Source: a virus
Strand: one strand, 5' to 3'
DNA length: 64,000 nt
UHGV virus genome: UHGV-0073881
Shown here: positions 28,266 through 64,000 of the stretch, piece by piece
How positions within the stretch are numbered: position 1 is the first letter of the stretch
Layout: each line of letters opens with the position of its first letter
Translations under genes and position numbers: made by a program
Notes under the pieces: model-generated
Databases searched by the model: none
What the model saw: only the letters and a program-made list of their open reading frames with translations
What the model was told of the DNA's origin: nothing

Positions 28266-28778
28266 TCAACTTAGTTTTGCAAACTCTCCGTGGAGTTTCA
28301 TAGCAGCTTCACAGTAAGCTTCATGGGCTTCTTCAGGGGTGTCATACATCCCAAGATGATAATTCTTACCTTGTAAACGAATCATTGCCCTAAACCTTTT
28401 CCCTATCTTCTGTACACCTTTTGGTAAACCTGATATGGACTTTCTAGACCGATTGCAAGAGTTTTGTGAAGCCGTACAAACCCTCAAATTCAAATACCTA
28501 TTATCCCAACCATCACAATTCTTGTGGTCAACCTGTAAGGTTTTATCAGGTAGGTATCCATCCATATACAAGATAACTAAACGATTTGCTTGGTAACTCC
28601 TTCCATCAATCAGCAATTGGACAGACTTGTGACCATCAGTGTTTGTTCTGTAGTTTCCAGCCCTCTTACCTCCAAATCTAGAGTTAAAGTTTGCATTACC
28701 TTCTCTAAATTTCCAAGTAAAGACCCCTGTATCGGGGTCGTACTCTAAAAGCTCCTTTAAACGAATTTCTGTAATCAT
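28266..28778 (-). CDS. HNH homing endonuclease with AP2-like DNA-binding domain
   Basis: HNH motif (VDHKNCDGWDNRYLNLRVCTASQN) plus AP2-like C-terminus (GVQKIGKRFRAMIRLQGKNYHLGMYDTPEEAHEAY); paralogue of the ORF at 38356; start chosen at internal Met aligning with that paralogue (track start 28817 overlaps the polymerase). Confidence 0.65.
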   Translation of the reverse strand: MITEIRLKELLEYDPDTGVFTWKFREGNANFNSRFGGKRAGNYRTNTDGHKSVQLLIDGRSYQANRLVILYMDGYLPDKTLQVDHKNCDGWDNRYLNLRVCTASQNSCNRSRKSISGLPKGVQKIGKRFRAMIRLQGKNYHLGMYDTPEEAHEAYCEAAMKLHGEFAKLS

Positions 28779-31494: not shown

Positions 31495-31744
31495 TCCCTC
31501 TCAAACATATGACTCCATACCTTACTGCAAAACGACACAAAAAGCAAGTTGACAAATAACTTGACAGGGTGTTAGTCTTGTATGCAGTGGGTTTTAACTT
31601 AAAAGACTCCCTTTACAGATTAACTATACAGATTCTTTAAAACCCTTAAAAGATTTTAATAGCTTTTAAAAAGCTTTAAAGTATTACGTATAGAATACGT
31701 AAAGAAAGAGATTAAGACTTAATAGAAACTATAAAGAGGCTGCC
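31495..31744. promoter_or_regulatory. divergent intergenic control region
   Basis: 250-bp AT-rich gap between the - strand polymerase gene and + strand genes; tandem TTGACA hexamers at 31549 and 31561; perfect inverted repeat TACGTAT-aga-ATACGTA at 31686-31702. Confidence 0.4.
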
Positions 31745-36347: not shown

Positions 36348-36376
36348 TTGACAAAGGAGTATGAAGTCTGTAACAT
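36348..36376 (+). promoter_or_regulatory. sigma70-like promoter candidate (TTGACA-N17-TAACAT)
   Basis: hexamers upstream of the SSB-like gene; spacer contains a short hairpin. Confidence 0.35.
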
Positions 36377-36428
36377 TGTACTCCTTCGAGTTTGAGTTAA
36401 AAGTTTAATTGAGTAAAGAGGTATTAAA

Positions 36429-44861: not shown

Positions 44862-45054
44862 GAAAATTATCAAAGGTTTTAAAGAAGATGCTGTCATGCT
44901 CCTGATTATCATCTTCGCAATGAATATGTTTATTGACTTCAAACAAGGTTTTATGTTTGGGATAATGCTAGTATGGTTAATCATTGAGATACTAGATATC
45001 CACCTTGGATTGAGTGATAAGGTTGAAAAGATATTTAAAAAGATTTTTAAATAA
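44854..45054 (+). CDS. small membrane protein
   Basis: 66 aa with two hydrophobic segments. Confidence 0.4.
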   Translation: MLEKIIKGFKEDAVMLLIIIFAMNMFIDFKQGFMFGIMLVWLIIEILDIHLGLSDKVEKIFKKIFK

Positions 45055-47256: not shown

Positions 47257-47267
47257 GTAGTTGACAA

Positions 47268-47306
47268 GGTAGTGTAGGTCTTGATAGGCTTGCACTACCT
47301 TTTTTA
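47268..47306 (+). terminator. stem-loop terminator candidate
   Basis: GGTAGTG ... CACTACC (7-bp stem, long loop) followed by TTTTTT. Confidence 0.45.
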
Positions 47307-47411
47307 TTGGATGTTAGATATGACAGAGAACATCATTGGTTTATTCATAGGTTCTACCTTACTAGGGTTCTTTCTAGGACTCCTTTATTGTGACTTAAGA
47401 GGAAAGTTAAA

Positions 47412-50907: not shown

Positions 50908-52725
50908 ATGACTAAATCAATCTACGCAGTTCCAGCAGGTCTTAATGCAGATGCCTACAAAGCAGGTCACATCTACCAGTATCCAAGTGCTACACAGTAT
51001 TTGATGCTGAACCTTACACCTCGTGGTGATAAGTGGTTTAACAGCCCCTTAGAAGTTGACGGTGTAGTTGCTTTTGGTATCCAACGTTTTGTAAAAGACT
51101 ATCTGGTAGACCATTGGAATGCAACGTTCTTTGAGCGTGACAAGAAAGAAGCTGTTGATGAAATCTTAGAAGTTATGAATGGTGTACTTGGTGCAGATGC
51201 TATTGGTCGTGAGCATTGGGAAGAACTCCACGATTTAGGGTACTTACCCGTTGCTGTATATTCTGTTGAAGAAGGTATTGTAGTACCAATGCGTGTGCCA
51301 ATGATTGTCTTCAAAAATACTGTTGAAGGTTTCCATTGGGTAGCTGGTTATCTGGAAGATGCTTTCTCTGCTGAAATTTGGAAAGCTTGTACCATTGCAA
51401 CTATTGCGCTGCACTACAAACGTATCTGTAAGAATTGGGCTGATGTAACCTGTGATAATGACTTCCACTTACCTTGGCAGTGTCATGATTTTGCAATGCG
51501 TGGTATGTCTGGCTTCACAGATGATGCTTTTAATGCTGTAGGTCACTTGACCAGCTTTAAAGGTACTGACAGCTTCCCTGCTGTGTATACTGCTAAACGT
51601 GCTTATGGTCAGTTTATGACAATCAGTGATATTGGCAACTCTGTACCAGCAACTGAACACTCTGTGATGTGTGCAAACATTTCATGGAATAGTACATCTA
51701 AAGAAGTTAGTGATTGGCATCTTATGCAATCTGATAACCTGCTAGATGCAATGCGTTGGCGTGGCGAGGTAGACACTTTCAAACGTCTGTTAGTTGATGT
51801 TTATCCAACTGGTATTGCAAGTGTTGTTTCAGATACTTATAACTTCTGGCGTACTGTTACACAGATTCTACCAGAATTACGCGAAGTCATCCTGAACCGT
51901 GATGGTAAGTTGGTTATCCGTCCAGACTCTGGAGACCCTGTTCACATTGTAACTGGCTACAAAGCTATTGAGTGGGAAACTGCTAAGTCAATGTTCTATA
52001 AGCATATGAAGAGTCTTGCACCTGATAATACTCATCTGCATGATGCAATCTTAAATTGTGAGATGGGTGATATGGGCTTTGGCTTTGCTGCTTGGTTAGT
52101 CTCAGAAGGCTATGAGATGACAGTTGACAAAGAAGACTTTGACCATGCTGATACAGTTAACCTGATTGCCGCTCAAAAGACTGGACAGTTTACTGTTAAG
52201 CGTATGCTGACAGCAGAGATTGACGGAGCTATCAAAACTCTGTACAACATCTTTGGAGGCCACGTAAACAGCAAAGGTTACAAAGTACTGGATGAGCATA
52301 TTGGCTTAATCTACGGAGATTCTATCACTCTTGAACGTGCTGATGAGATTCTTAAGCGTCTTGCTGAGAAAGGTTTTGCAAGCTCTAACGTAGTGTTTGG
52401 CGTAGGTTCTTACACTTATCAGTATCTGACTCGTGATACCTTTGCATTTGCTGTTAAGGCTACACTTGCTCAAATGGATGGTGAAGAAATTATGCTGGCA
52501 AAAGACCCTAAAACTGACAGTGGTCTGAAGAAGTCTGCATTTGGTGGTGTAGTTCCAATGTGGGACGGTGATAAACTGGAAGCTGTAGACGGCTTAGGTT
52601 TTGCAGAGTTTGAAGGTGTCATTGATAACCCTCAGTGCGCACTGAAGCTTGTCTTCTGTGACTCACAACCATATGGTTACGTTAACCTTCGTGATGTACG
52701 AAAAGTTATTGACAACCAGATTTAA
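50908..52725 (+). CDS. nadV: nicotinamide phosphoribosyltransferase-like protein
   Basis: 605 aa; N-terminal DAYKAGHIYQYP and HDFAMRGMSG match NAMPT signatures; longer than typical NAMPT. Confidence 0.75.
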   Translation: MTKSIYAVPAGLNADAYKAGHIYQYPSATQYLMLNLTPRGDKWFNSPLEVDGVVAFGIQRFVKDYLVDHWNATFFERDKKEAVDEILEVMNGVLGADAIGREHWEELHDLGYLPVAVYSVEEGIVVPMRVPMIVFKNTVEGFHWVAGYLEDAFSAEIWKACTIATIALHYKRICKNWADVTCDNDFHLPWQCHDFAMRGMSGFTDDAFNAVGHLTSFKGTDSFPAVYTAKRAYGQFMTISDIGNSVPATEHSVMCANISWNSTSKEVSDWHLMQSDNLLDAMRWRGEVDTFKRLLVDVYPTGIASVVSDTYNFWRTVTQILPELREVILNRDGKLVIRPDSGDPVHIVTGYKAIEWETAKSMFYKHMKSLAPDNTHLHDAILNCEMGDMGFGFAAWLVSEGYEMTVDKEDFDHADTVNLIAAQKTGQFTVKRMLTAEIDGAIKTLYNIFGGHVNSKGYKVLDEHIGLIYGDSITLERADEILKRLAEKGFASSNVVFGVGSYTYQYLTRDTFAFAVKATLAQMDGEEIMLAKDPKTDSGLKKSAFGGVVPMWDGDKLEAVDGLGFAEFEGVIDNPQCALKLVFCDSQPYGYVNLRDVRKVIDNQI

Positions 52726-52740
52726 GTAAGTATTATAAGA

Positions 52741-52761
52741 GGCTCCTACGGGAGCCTTTTT
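52741..52761 (+). terminator. rho-independent terminator
   Basis: GGCTCC-TACG-GGAGCC followed by TTTTT. Confidence 0.65.
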
Positions 52762-52778: not shown

Positions 52779-53000
52779 ATGAGATTTAATACAGATTTAT
52801 TTTACACAGACAGCACTGGATTCTTTGGTTGGTCTCCAGCAGCAGCTTGGCAGTTATGGTTTTCAGAAGATTACAAAGAGGATAGGCAAGTCTTTGTAAT
52901 GGACTACAAGTTCCCTGTAAAACCAACTAAACGTCAGGTTAGAAAGCTTCGTAGAGAGTTTCGTAAAGTTTGCAAAGGGGTTATTAGCTATGAAAATTAA
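52779..53000 (+). CDS. hypothetical protein
   Basis: 73-aa ORF. Confidence 0.4.
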   Translation: MRFNTDLFYTDSTGFFGWSPAAAWQLWFSEDYKEDRQVFVMDYKFPVKPTKRQVRKLRREFRKVCKGVISYEN

Positions 53001-53325
53001 GCAAATGAATATCAACATTATCTTAGAAGAACGCTGGGAAAACATCAAACGTACTGAAGATGGTCACAAGTTCATTACTAAGATTATGCAGGAAGCACAG
53101 ACTCAACTTGCTTCTGAGATTCATACAACGATTACTTTGAAGGTTTACATCAAAGGTCTGCCACAAAACCATCAAGAAGCACTTGACCTGTTCTGTGAGC
53201 ACTTCTACAATCCGAACAAAAGAATCCTTGAAGATAATTTTGCAGTCTCTTCAAGTATCGTTCATGACAGAAGTTTTATCCTGTTTAAAACTGTAGGGGA
53301 AAAGGTATGCAAGGTTATTGGTTAG
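52990..53325 (+). CDS. hypothetical protein
   Basis: 111-aa ORF. Confidence 0.4.
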   Translation: MKIKQMNINIILEERWENIKRTEDGHKFITKIMQEAQTQLASEIHTTITLKVYIKGLPQNHQEALDLFCEHFYNPNKRILEDNFAVSSSIVHDRSFILFKTVGEKVCKVIG

Positions 53326-53486
53326 AGATTGTCTTATCACTTGGTTGTATAGTTGCAATTGCAGTGCTATTATGCAGGTACTTTGCAGAAACAGAACCAT
53401 GTGAAGAGTGTGAAGGGACTGGTGTAGCAGGTATGGGGCATTGCTGCCCCTACTGCAACGGTTCTGGAAAGAAATTTAAAAAATAA
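53307..53486 (+). CDS. small membrane-anchored zinc-ribbon protein
   Basis: 59 codons, below ORF-track cutoff; RBS-like AGGGGAAAAGG; N-terminal TM helix, then CEECEG ... CCPYCNGSG; preferred over antisense ORF 53370..53597. Confidence 0.35.
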   Translation: MQGYWLEIVLSLGCIVAIAVLLCRYFAETEPCEECEGTGVAGMGHCCPYCNGSGKKFKK

Positions 53487-53487
53487 T

Positions 53488-53517
53488 TTGACATGGCTAT
53501 ACAGTTTTCTGTATAGT
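53488..53517 (+). promoter_or_regulatory. sigma70-like promoter (TTGACA-N18-TATAGT) with overlapping palindrome
   Basis: consensus -35; perfect 8-bp inverted repeat CTATACAG-tttt-CTGTATAG spans the spacer and -10; about 35 nt upstream of rIIA. Confidence 0.5.
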
Positions 53518-53550
53518 CTCTTAACCAAAACAACATAGAGGAATATAGTT

Positions 53551-55926
53551 ATGCGCATGGTAAATGACCACGCAGAAGTAATTAAGAGTTCAACCACGTT
53601 AGAGACTGCTCAAGCATCGATTACCATGACTCCTGAGATGTTTAGTCTTCTGAGTTCTGGTGTATACACACATAAGGAACGTGCTGTAATTCGTGAGCTT
53701 TCCTGTAATGCTGTAGATGCTCATGTAGAGGCTGGTAATTCAGATAAACCATTCAGGGTTCACTTACCAACTCGTTTTGAGCCTTACTTTGAAGTACGAG
53801 ATTTTGGAACTGGTTTAACACACGATAAAGTTATGTCTCTGTATCTCAACTACGGAGAATCAACAAAGAATGATTCCAACGATTATATTGGTGCAATGGG
53901 TATCGGTTCAAAGTCACCATTTGCAATTGCTCAATCATTTACTGTGTCAAGCTATGTAGATGGTGTTGTAAACAAATACTCTGTATATCTGGAAAATGGT
54001 ATTCCAAGGGTTACTAAACTGACAACTAACCCTACTGTTGAACCAAACGGTTTAGCTGTACGTGTGGCAGTTTCTGACCAACGTATCAGTAAGTTTGCAG
54101 ATGAAGCAAGTAACGTGTTCTCTTACTTCAAAGTAAAACCAGAGTGTAACATTGAGTATCGTGATATCCTTGCAGAGATGACTTCAATCTCTCGTGAAGC
54201 AAATGTCTACGATGCTATGAAGTACAAAGAGAACTGGCGTTCAAGCAATAACGTAGTTAACTTTAATGTGGTCATGGGTAATATTGCATACCCTGTTGAT
54301 GTACCAACTTTGTTCGAAGGTAACTATGCAGATGCTGTTCCACAGTTCTTCAGGAATGCAGTAGACCTTGTTAACATCTATATGCCAATCGGTTCAGTAG
54401 CTATTGCTGCATCTCGTGAAGCACTACAGATGAATGAGGCAACTAAGCAGAAGATTATTGATGCTGTTAACCGTATCACAGAGACTATTGTTGCAGATGT
54501 TATCAAGGCTGTTGCTGATAAGCCAACTTTGCTTGATGCTGCACAAGCTTACAGTGACATGTTTAAAGATTCTCGTGAAATCTTCATGCACGTTCAAAAC
54601 AAGCTTGAGTGGAATGGTCAGAACTTAGCAGAACTTGACAGAAAACTTAACAGTATTCGTCGTGGTCAGTTAACTGAAGCAGATGGTTCACCGTCATTTA
54701 TTAAGAATGATGCAGGTGATTTCATGCTTGACAAAGATGGTAATAAGATTCCTAACATTGGGAACCTGTATGAACCAGTAGCTTATTATAAGTTTAGTAG
54801 TCTTGAGAACCGTATTCGTGCAACTTCAGCCACTTATACACAAGACTCTTCAATGTTCAATATCTTCAGTGGTATGAGCAAAGATAAGCTGTATAACTAC
54901 ATGTTTATGATTAATGACCGTCGAAACAAAAACGGTACTGAGAAGACAACTGGTAAGAATCAGATTATCCGTGGAGCTTGCCGTGACCGTGAACTTGAAG
55001 AACCTATGTTCCGTCGCTACAATGGTATAGTTTTCATGTTTAGTTCTGAAGAACAATTGGATGACTTTATCAAGCTTCATATGCTGGATAAGAGCTTGCT
55101 TAATATTGTCACAATGTCTTCTAAAGAGCACCACTATGTTAAGCGTACCGTTGTACGTGGTGTTGTTAAGCTGTATAAAGCATTCATGGACAGTACACCA
55201 CGGATTGCCTATACAGAAGTGAAAGAGAACTTTGATGATATTGAAGAACCACAATATTACATCAAGGCACAAAGTGACACTGTTGTGGGTGATATCTTCA
55301 GTTGTTCCCCAGAGACAGCAGCAAAACTGACTGCTCAACTTATTGGACAACCTGTGTATGTCTTCCGTAAGGCTAACTGGAAGAAAGTACCTGAAGATTG
55401 GATTGAAATCAGTGACCAAGTTTTCAAAGATTTTATTGACAGTAGCCATTGGGTTGATTACAATCGCTACCTCACTCACCAGTACATGAGTGGAAGTAAA
55501 GGCACTAGCATTCTTGACTGTAATGTTATCTCAAGAAACTTCACCTTTAAGGATAAGAAGATTTCTAAAGGCTACGTGTACAGCAAAGACTTTGAGAAGG
55601 TAATGTTCCTTGAAGGGAATGAAGAAGCAATTGAGGATGTATTCGGTCGAATCGCCTACACTGCTGCACCTATTGCTTACATGTTTGAGACAAGTGTTTT
55701 AAATGACATTCGTCGTCACACAAAGAGCGGAAGCAAAATTAACAAGAGTCTGAAGAAAGCTAAGAACCATATGGAGAAGAAACTTGAAGTTTATTTCTCT
55801 AAAAGAAAGTCAAAAAACTTCTTGCTTTCACACCTTGATTGGAATAAAGTAAGCCCTGTTGAAGTGAGTAACTTCTTAGGTCACCAAGTCCGGTCAATCC
55901 CTTCAGATACAACTGCTTGGGACTAA
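53551..55926 (+). CDS. rIIA: rIIA-like protein
   Basis: 791 aa; N-terminus with GHKL-ATPase-like motifs (RAVIRELSCNAVDAH, RDFGTGL, SNDYIGAMGIGSKSPF) matching T4 rIIA as recalled; followed by an rIIB-like gene. Confidence 0.7.
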   Translation: MRMVNDHAEVIKSSTTLETAQASITMTPEMFSLLSSGVYTHKERAVIRELSCNAVDAHVEAGNSDKPFRVHLPTRFEPYFEVRDFGTGLTHDKVMSLYLNYGESTKNDSNDYIGAMGIGSKSPFAIAQSFTVSSYVDGVVNKYSVYLENGIPRVTKLTTNPTVEPNGLAVRVAVSDQRISKFADEASNVFSYFKVKPECNIEYRDILAEMTSISREANVYDAMKYKENWRSSNNVVNFNVVMGNIAYPVDVPTLFEGNYADAVPQFFRNAVDLVNIYMPIGSVAIAASREALQMNEATKQKIIDAVNRITETIVADVIKAVADKPTLLDAAQAYSDMFKDSREIFMHVQNKLEWNGQNLAELDRKLNSIRRGQLTEADGSPSFIKNDAGDFMLDKDGNKIPNIGNLYEPVAYYKFSSLENRIRATSATYTQDSSMFNIFSGMSKDKLYNYMFMINDRRNKNGTEKTTGKNQIIRGACRDRELEEPMFRRYNGIVFMFSSEEQLDDFIKLHMLDKSLLNIVTMSSKEHHYVKRTVVRGVVKLYKAFMDSTPRIAYTEVKENFDDIEEPQYYIKAQSDTVVGDIFSCSPETAAKLTAQLIGQPVYVFRKANWKKVPEDWIEISDQVFKDFIDSSHWVDYNRYLTHQYMSGSKGTSILDCNVISRNFTFKDKKISKGYVYSKDFEKVMFLEGNEEAIEDVFGRIAYTAAPIAYMFETSVLNDIRRHTKSGSKINKSLKKAKNHMEKKLEVYFSKRKSKNFLLSHLDWNKVSPVEVSNFLGHQVRSIPSDTTAWD

Positions 55927-55934
55927 ACAAAAGC

Positions 55935-55963
55935 TTGACTGGGGCTGAAAAGCCCCTTAGAAT
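55935..55963 (+). promoter_or_regulatory. sigma70-like promoter candidate (TTGACT-N17-TAGAAT)
   Basis: hexamers with 17-nt spacer containing hairpin GGGGCT-GAAA-AGCCCC; upstream of rIIB. Confidence 0.45.
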
Positions 55964-57123: not shown

Positions 57124-57140
57124 TCAGTAAATTCTTAAAA

Positions 57141-57164
57141 GGGCTGCTTCGGCAGCCTTTTTTA
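57141..57164 (+). terminator. rho-independent terminator
   Basis: GGGCTGC-TTCG-GCAGCC followed by TTTTTT. Confidence 0.65.
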
Positions 57165-57224
57165 TTTGTGATTTGTGCAGAATAGTGTATAATTACCCCT
57201 ATGTTTAATAAAATAGGAGAACCA

Positions 57225-58923: not shown

Positions 58924-58935
58924 GGTTACTATATA

Positions 58936-58956
58936 GGCTCCTTCGGGAGCCTTTTT
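58936..58956 (+). terminator. rho-independent terminator
   Basis: GGCTCC-TTCG-GGAGCC followed by TTTTT. Confidence 0.65.
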
Positions 58957-58974
58957 AAATTTCAAGGAGTACTA

Positions 58975-59859
58975 ATGAAGCCAATGTTCAAATATCTTGG
59001 TGGTAAAACAAGAATACTAAGAGAGTATGAGCGTTTAAATGTTTTTCCAAGCCACTGTAAAAACTTCTATGATTTGTTTTCAGGTGGAGGTTCAGTCGCT
59101 ATTTGGGCTTATAACAGATACCCAGAAGCAAAAATATTTATTAATGAGATAAACAAACACATTATAGGTCTTTACACAACTTTCAGAAATGACTATGAAA
59201 ACTTCATGGAAGAATTTGAGTGCTTGTCAAAGAGGTACTTAGCATTACCTATGCAGGAAGAATATGCTGTGAAAGGTCAGCGACATAAACGTTTACGCTA
59301 TAAAATGTATTACAGTGTAAGGGAGGAACTCCTTTCACTTGGTGAAACAGGTATATATGACTATAGGTACTATGCAAGACAATTTTTCCTTCAAAAACTA
59401 AGTTTTGGTGGTGTATGGCAGACCACTAAAGAAATGAAAGGTCACTACGCAACACCTTGTGGGTATTTGCTGGAAGAAGAGATTTTCTTTACAAAAACTA
59501 AAGAGTCACTATCCGAGTTCTACAGTTTTATCACCGATAAAAGGGTGATACTAAGTAGTGAGCCTTATGATATGGTTGACATAAAACATGGAGAAGGTAC
59601 AGTTATTTACTGTGACCCCCCATATATCAACACCAACCAGAAATATGGTGCAAAGTTTGACATTGAAATGTCTGTAAAACTATGTGAAAATATGATTTCT
59701 TGGGGAGAGTTAGGTTCTAAAGTTTTGATGTCAAACTCTCAGTGGGATGGATGGACAAACTTAATCCCTGAAAATTTTAACTTGACAGAGGTTAGCCATT
59801 CATACACAATACATGCACAGAGAAGCAAGGGTGTTAGCGAAGTAATTATTCATAACTAA
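58975..59859 (+). CDS. dam: DNA N6-adenine methyltransferase (Dam family)
   Basis: 294 aa; SAM-binding FxGxG (FYDLFSGGGS) and catalytic DPPY (VIYCDPPYI). Confidence 0.8.
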   Translation: MKPMFKYLGGKTRILREYERLNVFPSHCKNFYDLFSGGGSVAIWAYNRYPEAKIFINEINKHIIGLYTTFRNDYENFMEEFECLSKRYLALPMQEEYAVKGQRHKRLRYKMYYSVREELLSLGETGIYDYRYYARQFFLQKLSFGGVWQTTKEMKGHYATPCGYLLEEEIFFTKTKESLSEFYSFITDKRVILSSEPYDMVDIKHGEGTVIYCDPPYINTNQKYGAKFDIEMSVKLCENMISWGELGSKVLMSNSQWDGWTNLIPENFNLTEVSHSYTIHAQRSKGVSEVIIHN

Positions 59860-59870
59860 GGTATCAAACC

Positions 59871-60683
59871 ATGACAAACAGTGTAAATGTAGCTCTAAAC
59901 GGTAAGATTGTTAAAATGCAGACTAAGATTATCAGCGTAGAAGACTTTATTAATGAGAAACGCTACAAGGAAAATCCACGTCAACGAAATACATTAAAAC
60001 GACTTAAGAGCAAACACCTTAATGGTGATGTATCACCAGACCAAACAGTTGTCCATATTGCTAAATTCGGTAGTTCACTGTTTATTATTGACGGCCACTC
60101 ACGCAGAGAGGCATGGAAAGTTGGGAACCTTACACGACCAGAAGGATTGATTGCAGTTATATACCATGTAAACTCTATACTAGATGTTACAGATTTGTAC
60201 ACTCACTTTGACTCTGAGTTAGCAAGAGAGAAACCTTCAGAAGTCTATTACGGAAACATGAAGATGATTTCCTTCAATCCAAAGTCAGAGTTGATGAAAG
60301 CATCTTGGGCTACTGCTATTAAGTATGTTGCTGCATACTATGGGGTGCAACAGGTTTCTAACACTGAAACAGTCAATCACCTTGATGACTTTAAAAATGA
60401 GATGGAGCAAATTGACTCTCTTGAAGTACAGCTCAAAGGTGTAGTAAACGCAAAACGTAAGTATTCCTCTGGTATTCGTGCAGCAATGCTAATTACATTA
60501 CGGCTATATGGTGATGCTGCATTCTCCTTCTGGGAGGACTATAATGACTACTGCGAAGGTATGTCTAACAAATATGTTACAGAGGCATACCAACTAGCAT
60601 TGCAAGCTGGTCGTGGAGCACAGGCTGACAAGCTATTGATGAATCAAGTAATTTCACTTGTCAACTACTTCAGCCAAGAGTAG
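59871..60683 (+). CDS. ParB-like nuclease-domain protein
   Basis: 270 aa; segment FIIDGHSRREAWKVG matches the ParB/Srx N-terminal box (hydrophobic-x-DG-x-x-RR-x-A); directly downstream of dam. Confidence 0.45.
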   Translation: MTNSVNVALNGKIVKMQTKIISVEDFINEKRYKENPRQRNTLKRLKSKHLNGDVSPDQTVVHIAKFGSSLFIIDGHSRREAWKVGNLTRPEGLIAVIYHVNSILDVTDLYTHFDSELAREKPSEVYYGNMKMISFNPKSELMKASWATAIKYVAAYYGVQQVSNTETVNHLDDFKNEMEQIDSLEVQLKGVVNAKRKYSSGIRAAMLITLRLYGDAAFSFWEDYNDYCEGMSNKYVTEAYQLALQAGRGAQADKLLMNQVISLVNYFSQE

Positions 60684-60689
60684 TACACA

Positions 60690-60710
60690 GGCTCCAGAAG
60701 GAGCCTTTTT
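60690..60710 (+). terminator. rho-independent terminator
   Basis: GGCTCC-AGAA-GGAGCC followed by TTTTT. Confidence 0.65.
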
Positions 60711-63754: not shown

Positions 63755-63799
63755 AGCCTTTCTTACTCAAGCATTCAGCAAGGTAAGGAGGGCTTTTTC
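63755..63799 (+). terminator. stem-loop terminator candidate
   Basis: AGCCTTTCTTAC ... GTAAGGAGGGCT (12-bp stem with two G-U pairs, 16-nt loop) followed by TTTTT. Confidence 0.45.
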
Positions 63800-64000
63800 A
63801 TTTCAAAAACGTGCAGGTGTAGTGCTATAGAGAAATCTGTACAGCAATTTCTGAACTCCAAAGAGAAAAATCATTTTAGAATTGTGCAGGTCAACTCCAA
63901 AGAGCTTTTTCATTTTCAATCTGTGCAGATGCAGTTGGACTCCAAAGGGAAAATTCATTTTCAATTTGTGCAGGTAGGTAGCTATAGGAAGCCAGCCCCA
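63793..64000. repeat. array of imperfect direct repeats (unit ~40-45 bp)
   Basis: four copies of TCATTTT(C/A)(A/G)A-N3-4-GTGCAG(G/A)T at 63811, 63884, 63923 and 63968, interleaved with three copies of ACTCCAAAG(A/G)G; non-coding; runs to the window edge. Confidence 0.55.

Follow-up and report, generated by a model that had tools for sequence, protein, structure and literature searches.

Gene order and sequence features at the rIIA start

The DNA analysed here is a 64-kb stretch (hereafter the window) of a lytic Felix O1-like myovirus (Ounavirinae), for which the closest record is Escherichia phage pEC-M719-6WT.1, followed by members of Mooglevirus and Suspvirus. A nicotinamide phosphoribosyltransferase gene is followed by three small ORFs (73, 111 and 59 aa), all on the plus strand, and then by rIIA and rIIB; domain searches of the three small ORFs returned DUF7279 or no match. 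The gap between the 59-aa ORF and rIIA measures 64 nt, most of which is filled by a promoter and palindrome element. All relatives annotate the gene directly downstream as rIIA, and its product in the window carries a GHKL-ATPase domain, bearing out the first-pass annotation in its placement of the element upstream of this gene. The features of the locus, in window coordinates, are:

50908–52725, plus strand: nicotinamide phosphoribosyltransferase gene, upstream of the three small ORFs
53307–53486, plus strand: 59-aa ORF, whose TAA stop (53484–53486) ends 1 nt before the −35 hexamer
53470–53487, plus strand: A/T-rich tract AGAAATTTAAAAAATAAT, containing the stop codon and lying at the position of an UP-like element
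53488–53493, plus strand: −35 hexamer TTGACA, invariant in Mooglevirus, Suspvirus and pEC-M719-6WT.1
53494–53511, plus strand: spacer of 18 nt, 1 nt above the optimum
53495–53518, plus strand: predicted RNA stem-loop of 10 bp with one G·U (arms 53495–53504 and 53509–53518, loop TTTT)
53497–53516: perfect 8-bp inverted repeat CTATACAG-TTTT-CTGTATAG (5′ arm 53497–53504, loop 53505–53508, 3′ arm 53509–53516)
53512–53517, plus strand: −10 hexamer TATAGT (5/6), inside the 3′ arm of the stem
53524–53525, plus strand: inferred transcription start, ~7 nt past the −10 and downstream of the hairpin, placed by standard sigma-70 geometry
53537–53542, plus strand: Shine-Dalgarno sequence AGAGGA, 8 nt before the rIIA ATG (53551) and kept in all relatives
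53551–55926, plus strand: rIIA, 791 aa
56005–57123, plus strand: rIIB, 3′ of rIIA

The product of the 59-aa ORF, hydrophobic at its N-terminus and with two CxxCxGxG motifs, is annotated in relatives as a hypothetical or membrane protein; it can be described as a predicted membrane anchor with two zinc-finger motifs of the DnaJ type, and the position of its gene directly upstream of rIIA is kept throughout the subfamily. The 73-aa ORF (Pfam DUF7279; 52779–53000) is present in Moogle-type phages and absent from pEC-M719-6WT.1 and several others, and its RBS/ATG context is the one that starts the 111-aa ORF in pEC-M719-6WT.1.

The first-pass annotation had described a TTGACA-N18-TATAGT promoter overlapped by a perfect 8-bp palindrome, and this description proved exact, coordinates included. 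The hexamers together score 11/12, and the 3′ arm CTGTATAG covers five of the six bases of the −10. The promoter reading is plausible, in that the hexamers are intergenic, lie behind an A/T-rich tract and include a conserved −35. As RNA, the stem pairs GGCTATACAG with CTGTATAGTC at −13.4 kcal/mol (−6.5 kcal/mol as single-stranded DNA), and it begins 9 nt past the TAA that ends the 59-aa ORF, a codon sitting within AAATTTAAAAAATAAT. It is A/U-rich, G–C pairs making up 3 of the 10, and after it comes UCUCUUAA (tail TCTCTTAA); the G+C-rich stem and U tract of an intrinsic terminator are absent, and a terminator scan does not report the hairpin. A search of positions 53200–53800 against Rfam gave as its sole match a chance-level miRNA precursor (E 0.42).

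Several of these components are common in the window when taken alone. Perfect 8-bp inverted repeats with loops of 3–8 nt number 6 against 8.6 expected, and promoter matches scoring ≥11/12 number 4 against 1.85 expected. The half-site CTATACAG occurs 7 times against 2.2 expected, two of the seven occurrences being the palindrome itself, and GCTATA[GC] shows no enrichment (8 against 10 expected). The hexamers and the palindrome are each singly within chance, which does not hold for their joint occurrence in one intergenic gap of 64 nt. When the hexamers of the 42-nt element were held fixed and the rest was shuffled, the native fold was an outlier (z = −5.1), with 0 of 1000 shuffles folding as well. 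Conservation in relatives comes on top of this outlier, and it is these comparative data that establish the feature as real.

Conservation and variation in the Ounavirinae

In all 20 of the examined relatives with a recognisable promoter-form cassette, representing three lineages, TTGACA occupies the same place, and a TAnnnT hexamer 17–18 nt after the −35 falls in the same columns of a MAFFT alignment in Mooglevirus, ESh21-type phages and Suspvirus. The −10 reads TATAGT in Mooglevirus, TAAAGT in Suspvirus and CATAGC in pEC-M719-6WT.1. In Mooglevirus (Moogle, Mijalis, Michonne, Sf13-18, SFPB, KMM4, HP1 and others), the cassette is TTGACA-GTGGCA-T-CTATA-AAATTA-TATAG-TT-TGCCAC, in which an outer stem GTGGCA/TGCCAC encloses the spacer and the −10, and CTATA forms an inner stem with the TATAG contained in the −10. 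ESh21, Silverhawkium and one IMG/VR contig carry GAGGTA...TACCTC, in which two base pairs differ from the Moogle type in both partners, and Michonne and Silverhawkium each show one A-to-G change with the pairing kept as G·U. The cassette of Suspvirus (SUSP2, EP1, PC79-13, EcSzw-2, mistaenkt) reads TTGACA-ATC-GGTGCAGAG-TTCTT-TAAAGT-CTCTGCATC, placing the −10 in the loop of a GGTGCAGAG/CTCTGCATC stem. The distance between the CTATA and TATAG arms varies from 6 to 10 nt between lineages, and 0–1 T/U follows the stem in relatives.

All 11 of 11 pairs are paired throughout the Moogle/ESh21 alignment, two of them changed on both sides and two showing G·U changes, against 24–60% in slid controls; this covariation test covers the four distinct sequences, from two clades, of the Moogle/ESh21 group. 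A single consensus structure for all lineages was rejected, the stems using different registers in the MAFFT alignment, and it is because these pairing registers differ that covariation is countable within Moogle/ESh21 only. Most of the comparative evidence is thus of a hairpin kept at the site and not of classical covariation. When the same fixed-hexamer shuffling was applied to 10 lineage representatives, the native fold stood out clearly in 8, with z-scores from −2.4 to −5.9 (the window −5.1, pEC-M719 −3.9, Mijalis −4.5, Michonne −4.1, ESh21 −5.9, Silverhawkium −4.7, EP1 −3.9 and SUSP2 −2.4). Across these lineages, what is conserved is the promoter together with some hairpin starting right after the −35, and not the particular sequence of the dyad.

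The element is also lost or damaged in parts of the subfamily. Felixounavirus is without the whole ~34-nt module, a 30-nt spacer joining the 59-aa ORF to rIIA, while in vB_SflM_004 the cassette is decayed (TTAACA, TATAGC), lacks the outer stem and has a fold that is not significant, and in CHB7 the stem is weakened. A scan of viral contigs for the exact hairpin GGCTATACAGTTTTCTGNATAG gave no match, leaving pEC-M719-6WT.1 as the sole close relative for comparison. Over the 30 nt it has 3 substitutions relative to the window, where the local divergence is about 5%, and two of the three turn TATAGT into CATAGC, lengthening the base of the stem; no alternative −10 with A2 and T6 was found there at 16–19 nt. 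A metagenome scan with CTGGAAAGAAA-N12-15-TTGACA was unspecific, with no rIIA start among the matches listed. Because Felixounavirus lacks the module, the −10 is damaged in pEC-M719-6WT.1 and vB_SflM_004 is decayed, the cassette looks dispensable and accessory, and it appears to evolve faster than its neighbours.

Related cassettes and other repeats in the window

Promoter hexamers combined with hairpins recur elsewhere in the window. Four further plus-strand examples are:

36348–36386, plus strand: sister cassette, TTGACA-N17-TAACAT, with a stem of AAGGAGTA (36354–36361) and TACTCCTT (36379–36386) enclosing the spacer and the −10
47261–47307, plus strand: sister cassette, TTGACA with a 16-bp terminator hairpin (47266–47301) immediately behind it, then a T run
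52709–52760, plus strand: cassette opening the small-ORF unit of which the rIIA hairpin marks the end, TTGACA-N16-TATTAT abutting a terminator hairpin (52737–52760)
55935–55963, plus strand: rIIB cassette, TTGACT, then GGGGC-TGAAAA-GCCCC (55941–55956) exactly filling the spacer, then TAGAAT

On the minus strand, positions 28269 and 24459 have similar promoter-hairpin sites. Both the 36348 and the 47261 cassette match pEC-M719-6WT.1 at 100% identity, against a background of 87–90%, and the hairpin at 52737–52760 is an annotated terminator in Mijalis and Michonne. The rIIB cassette is kept in every Ounavirinae locus examined, Felixounavirus included, and is not among the promoters given in the Felix O1 genome paper (PMC3185647). 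Of 11 TTGAC[AT] sites at gene boundaries, 7 have a stable hairpin within 44 nt, and the mean minimum free energy of the 11 is −11.1 kcal/mol, compared with −5.0 kcal/mol for the other 139 sites (Mann-Whitney p = 6e-4). The small-ORF region of pEC-M719-6WT.1 contains repeated cassettes built to this same design, for example four copies of CTTTACA-TGGGGTTTA...TAGTAT-AAGCCCCA. No extended sequence is shared between the rIIA cassette and the other cassettes in the window, which have only the design in common with it.

Weaker hexamer pairs were also seen that end where a canonical terminator stem begins, at 45034/45063 (to 45084), 49113/49143 (to 49164) and 52709/52737 (to 52760). A transcript from the 45034, 49113 or 52709 cassette would include little of the 5′ arm and so run past the terminator, and the arrangement may be due to chance, these being hexamers of 10–11/12 in A/T-rich sequence. 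Separately, the window has a ~1.7-kb indel (58956–60681), absent from pEC-M719-6WT.1, that is flanked by two terminator hairpins of the form AGGCTCC-loop-GGAGCCTTTTT (58935–58952 and 60689–60706); pEC-M719-6WT.1 has a single chimeric hairpin, whose left flank matches that of the first copy and whose right flank matches that of the second. The indel fits recombination between repeated hairpin cassettes, and no exchange through the rIIA cassette itself was seen.

The first-pass annotation had linked the palindrome to two other parts of the window. It had reported a copy of the half-site at 31633 in the divergent region; a copy of CTATACAG does exist in that region, at 31624–31631, where it is part of a TACAGATT direct repeat and not of a palindrome. 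It had also reported GCTATAG behind a shared word in two units of the 3′ repeat array, and GCTATAG indeed stands 5 nt after GTGCAGGT in two of three array units (63811/63824 and 63968/63981). Neither link has statistical support, GCTATA[GC] not being enriched. The divergent intergenic region contains in addition a perfect 8-bp palindrome, TTACGTAT-AGA-ATACGTAA (31684–31702), ~45 nt before the first plus-strand gene, and two TTGACA motifs 12 nt apart (31549–31566).

The array itself (63789–63975, to the end of the window) comprises ~4 units of 39–45 nt with the core TTCATTTT(C/A)AAnnTGTGCAG(G/A)T; it stands directly after a terminator like Felix O1 t13 and is found also at L031 28150–28345. In the stretch 57166–57193, a single copy of the core, ATTTGTGCAG, lies between the rIIB terminator and a TATAAT at 57188–57193, and the Suspvirus rIIA hairpin contains GTGCAG 7 nt before the −10. 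TGTGCAG occurs 19 times against 12.3 expected, and the array with this core may be a phage-specific promoter box or a protein-binding array. Outside the window, a 1.6-kb noncoding region (L031 34500–36130; OQ845957 68719–70349) is dense in short repeats (CTTGTTAG/CTGTTAAG, GCTATAnAG and CTCTATA). It is situated where plus- and minus-strand gene blocks converge, is ~80% conserved in 266 Ounavirinae records and contains no tRNA genes; several deposited genomes begin near it, and it may be an origin or related to a terminus.

A probable promoter with a built-in hairpin, and the alternatives

On balance, and with some reserve, the palindrome over the rIIA promoter is probably a stem-loop inside a host-type promoter, the two forming a composite cassette that would stop and restart transcription. 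A sigma-70-type host promoter would drive rIIA-rIIB early, with a start near 53524, 6 nt beyond the stem; since this start lies downstream of the stem, transcripts from the embedded promoter would lack the hairpin and be unaffected by it. The hairpin would act in RNA reading through from the upstream unit (the 52709/52737 cassette and the 73-, 111- and 59-aa ORFs), where it could mark, attenuate or stabilise and protect the 3′ end just past the last stop codon. Because the spacer sequence is free, a hairpin in the 64-nt gap has to occupy the spacer, where it will either pair with the −10 or enclose it. The resemblance of the half-site to a −10 follows, since the −10 region itself serves as the 3′ arm and is complemented by a 5′ arm placed in the unconstrained spacer.

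As the stem has only 3 G–C pairs and no U tract and escaped the terminator scan, weak attenuation at most is expected; the hairpin is at most a weak terminator or attenuator, and efficient intrinsic termination is unlikely. Weak attenuation is also consistent with pEC-M719-6WT.1, where the −10 is lost and rIIA presumably depends on read-through of the hairpin. That the hairpin acts at the RNA level we infer, the comparison of strands being mixed: the plus strand folds better than the minus in 7 of 9 cases, and the pEC-M719 variant goes the opposite way. The searchable literature yielded no transcript maps or transcriptomes of Felix O1-like phages. These phages are reported to be without an RNA polymerase of their own, and the Felix O1 genome paper gives only five sigma-70-like promoters and calls temporal regulation unknown (PMC3185647).

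This layout resembles that of the promoter-early stem-loops (PeSLs) of the T4-like phages RB49/phi1, PST and nt-1 (Arbiol et al. 2010, PMC2839356; Comeau et al. 2014, PMC4122927). In a PeSL, an A/T-rich tract containing a stop codon is followed by sigma-70 hexamers, a stem-loop, a Shine-Dalgarno sequence and an ATG (PMC2839356), with the stem-loops mostly between the −35 and −10 or over the −10; one stem-loop, when tested, lowered expression downstream of it as a strong terminator would, and small genes are shuffled by recombination from one PeSL cassette to another (PMC2839356; PMC4122927). The rIIA element likewise has a stop codon in an A/T-rich tract before the −35, a near-consensus sigma-70 promoter (11/12), a stable stem-loop over a hexamer (−13.4 kcal/mol, z −5.1), and a Shine-Dalgarno sequence and ATG at its 3′ end. 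As a repeated family and in gene shuffling the likeness is only partial: the design recurs at gene boundaries (36348, 47261 and 55935, and 28269 and 24459 on the minus strand), the rIIA cassette sharing no extended sequence with the others, and the cassettes may be associated with gains and losses of genes between close relatives, the rIIA module being present, decayed or absent among genera and repeated hairpin cassettes bounding the 1.7-kb indel. The best reading of the rIIA element, by analogy of structure, is as a PeSL-like cassette, a design already known from T4-like phages. The likeness has its limits: the phage here belongs to the Ounavirinae (Felix O1-like) and is not T4-like; the rIIA stem is rich in A/T and made out of the −10, whereas that of PeSLs is of polyG/polyC; the cassettes share a design and sometimes hairpin modules, and not a conserved consensus of ~100 bp; and promoter, terminator and recombination activities are here predicted from sequence alone. 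The literature searched contained no report of PeSLs outside T4-like phages.

The first-pass annotation had proposed that a dimeric binder of the palindrome would occlude the −10. The overlap on which that proposal was built is real, while the step from it to a protein site lacks support, since pairing is kept and sequence is not. Extended to a phage or host DNA-binding protein that recognises CTATACAG/CTGTATAG, blocks the −10 and shuts off rIIA at some stage of infection, the proposal is in our judgement improbable. It can draw on the perfection of the palindrome and its cover of the −10, on some over-representation of CTATACAG (7 against 2.2 expected), on an everted palindrome CTGTATAG-AG-CTATACAG in pEC-M719-6WT.1 (L031 35134–35151), and on the recurrence of GCTATACAG in the repeat-rich 1.6-kb noncoding region conserved in the Ounavirinae. 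However, the orthologous site keeps its pairing with other sequences (GTGGCA/TGCCAC, GAGGTA/TACCTC, GGTGCAGAG/CTCTGCATC), the arms stand 6 to 10 nt apart depending on the lineage, and one-sided changes of the G·U type are tolerated in two lineages. No second palindrome with ≤1 mismatch exists in the 64-kb window searched (the remaining ~23 kb of the genome lying outside it), the best copy, at 63825, having 2 mismatches; GCTATA[GC] is not enriched, and cassettes of the same design elsewhere carry unrelated stems. GCTATACAG is equally conserved in the noncoding region of Mijalis, SUSP2 and ESh21, which have different rIIA hairpins, and because the word is kept where the hairpin differs, the two do not co-vary. 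A narrower version seems to us decidedly improbable: in it, GCTATACAG/CTGTATAGC is the word of a phage DNA-binding protein that also binds in the 1.6-kb region, where the word is kept in each lineage checked and forms the everted palindrome of pEC-M719-6WT.1, and the lineage of the window has recruited two inverted copies over the rIIA −10 as a recent operator. Were it true, rIIA expression would be tied to the role of the 1.6-kb region, perhaps that of an origin or timing switch. A LexA box was rejected, its half-sites being in the wrong order and at the wrong spacing; the consensus is CTGT-N8-ACAG, and the ACAG-N4-CTGT found here is the reverse arrangement. Like operators over a −10 (lac O1, lambda OR/OL, LexA boxes), the rIIA palindrome sets dyad symmetry over a core promoter, but its sequence is not conserved, it has no second site and no cognate regulator is known.

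The other readings dispense with a regulator. One holds that the site has no current function and is a decaying relic or chance palindrome beside fortuitous or redundant hexamers, rIIA being expressed mainly by read-through as in Felixounavirus. We regard this as unlikely, though it deserves some weight: the numbers of 8-bp palindromes and of 11/12 promoter matches in the window each lie within chance expectation, the module is missing in Felixounavirus and decayed in vB_SflM_004 and CHB7, pEC-M719-6WT.1 has lost T1 and T6 of the −10, and the site evolves faster than its surroundings. It sits poorly with a hairpin potential kept by different sequences and compensatory pairs in 8 of 10 representatives (z −2.4 to −5.9), with a TTGACA invariant across three lineages, and with perfectly conserved sister cassettes of the same design. 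An element acting as DNA, either a supercoil-dependent cruciform masking the −10 or a recombination hot spot moving gene cassettes, has in our view a low probability. Inverted repeats inside promoters are familiar from cruciform and DNA-hairpin promoters: the phage N4 virion RNA polymerase uses hairpin promoters, and Horwitz and Loeb reportedly engineered a cruciform promoter in 1988. The rIIA repeat, by comparison, is short and weak as DNA, and its hexamers are ordinary sigma-70 ones; at 20 bp it is short for cruciform extrusion, its single-stranded DNA hairpin is worth only −6.5 kcal/mol, and G·T wobbles and mismatches would weaken a cruciform on one strand. What speaks for action as DNA is that the module is present or absent between genera, that repeated hairpin cassettes bound the 1.7-kb indel (58956–60681) and leave a single chimeric copy in pEC-M719-6WT.1, and that the better minus-strand fold of the pEC-M719 variant fits a strand-neutral DNA palindrome. 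Recombination hot spots are the second role proposed for PeSLs (PMC2839356; PMC4122927), but the rIIA cassette has no long homology to the other cassettes of the window that could drive homologous exchange. Very unlikely, finally, is that the upstream unit simply ends in an intrinsic terminator beside fortuitous hexamers. The rho-independent terminators of this phage (for example 57137–57162 and 52737–52760) and those of Felix O1 (Table 2 of PMC3185647) likewise place a hairpin directly after the last stop of a unit on the coding strand, here 9 nt past the stop codon, and canonical terminators stand at other gene boundaries in the window. The rIIA hairpin differs from them in having no U tract, here or in any relative, in an A/U-rich stem with 3 G–C pairs where the canonical terminators of the phage are GC-rich, and in overlapping a promoter instead of preceding it; TTGACA and TAnnnT at 17–18 nt are conserved while the stem sequence varies, and rIIA, immediately downstream in the same orientation, must be transcribed.

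Since the cassette looks accessory for rIIA, little is at stake biologically there, and a palindrome covering a −10 is not necessarily the mark of a repressor. If the reading as a promoter with a built-in hairpin is correct, early genes of Felix O1-like phages would be organised by compact cassettes that combine promoter and hairpin, comparable to the PeSLs of T4-like phages, and the PeSL principle would extend to a second, unrelated group of lytic myoviruses, one that is used for typing and biocontrol. It would also provide a rule for annotating Ounavirinae genomes, namely to seek hairpins inside sigma-70 spacers, which would be useful for engineering these phages too.
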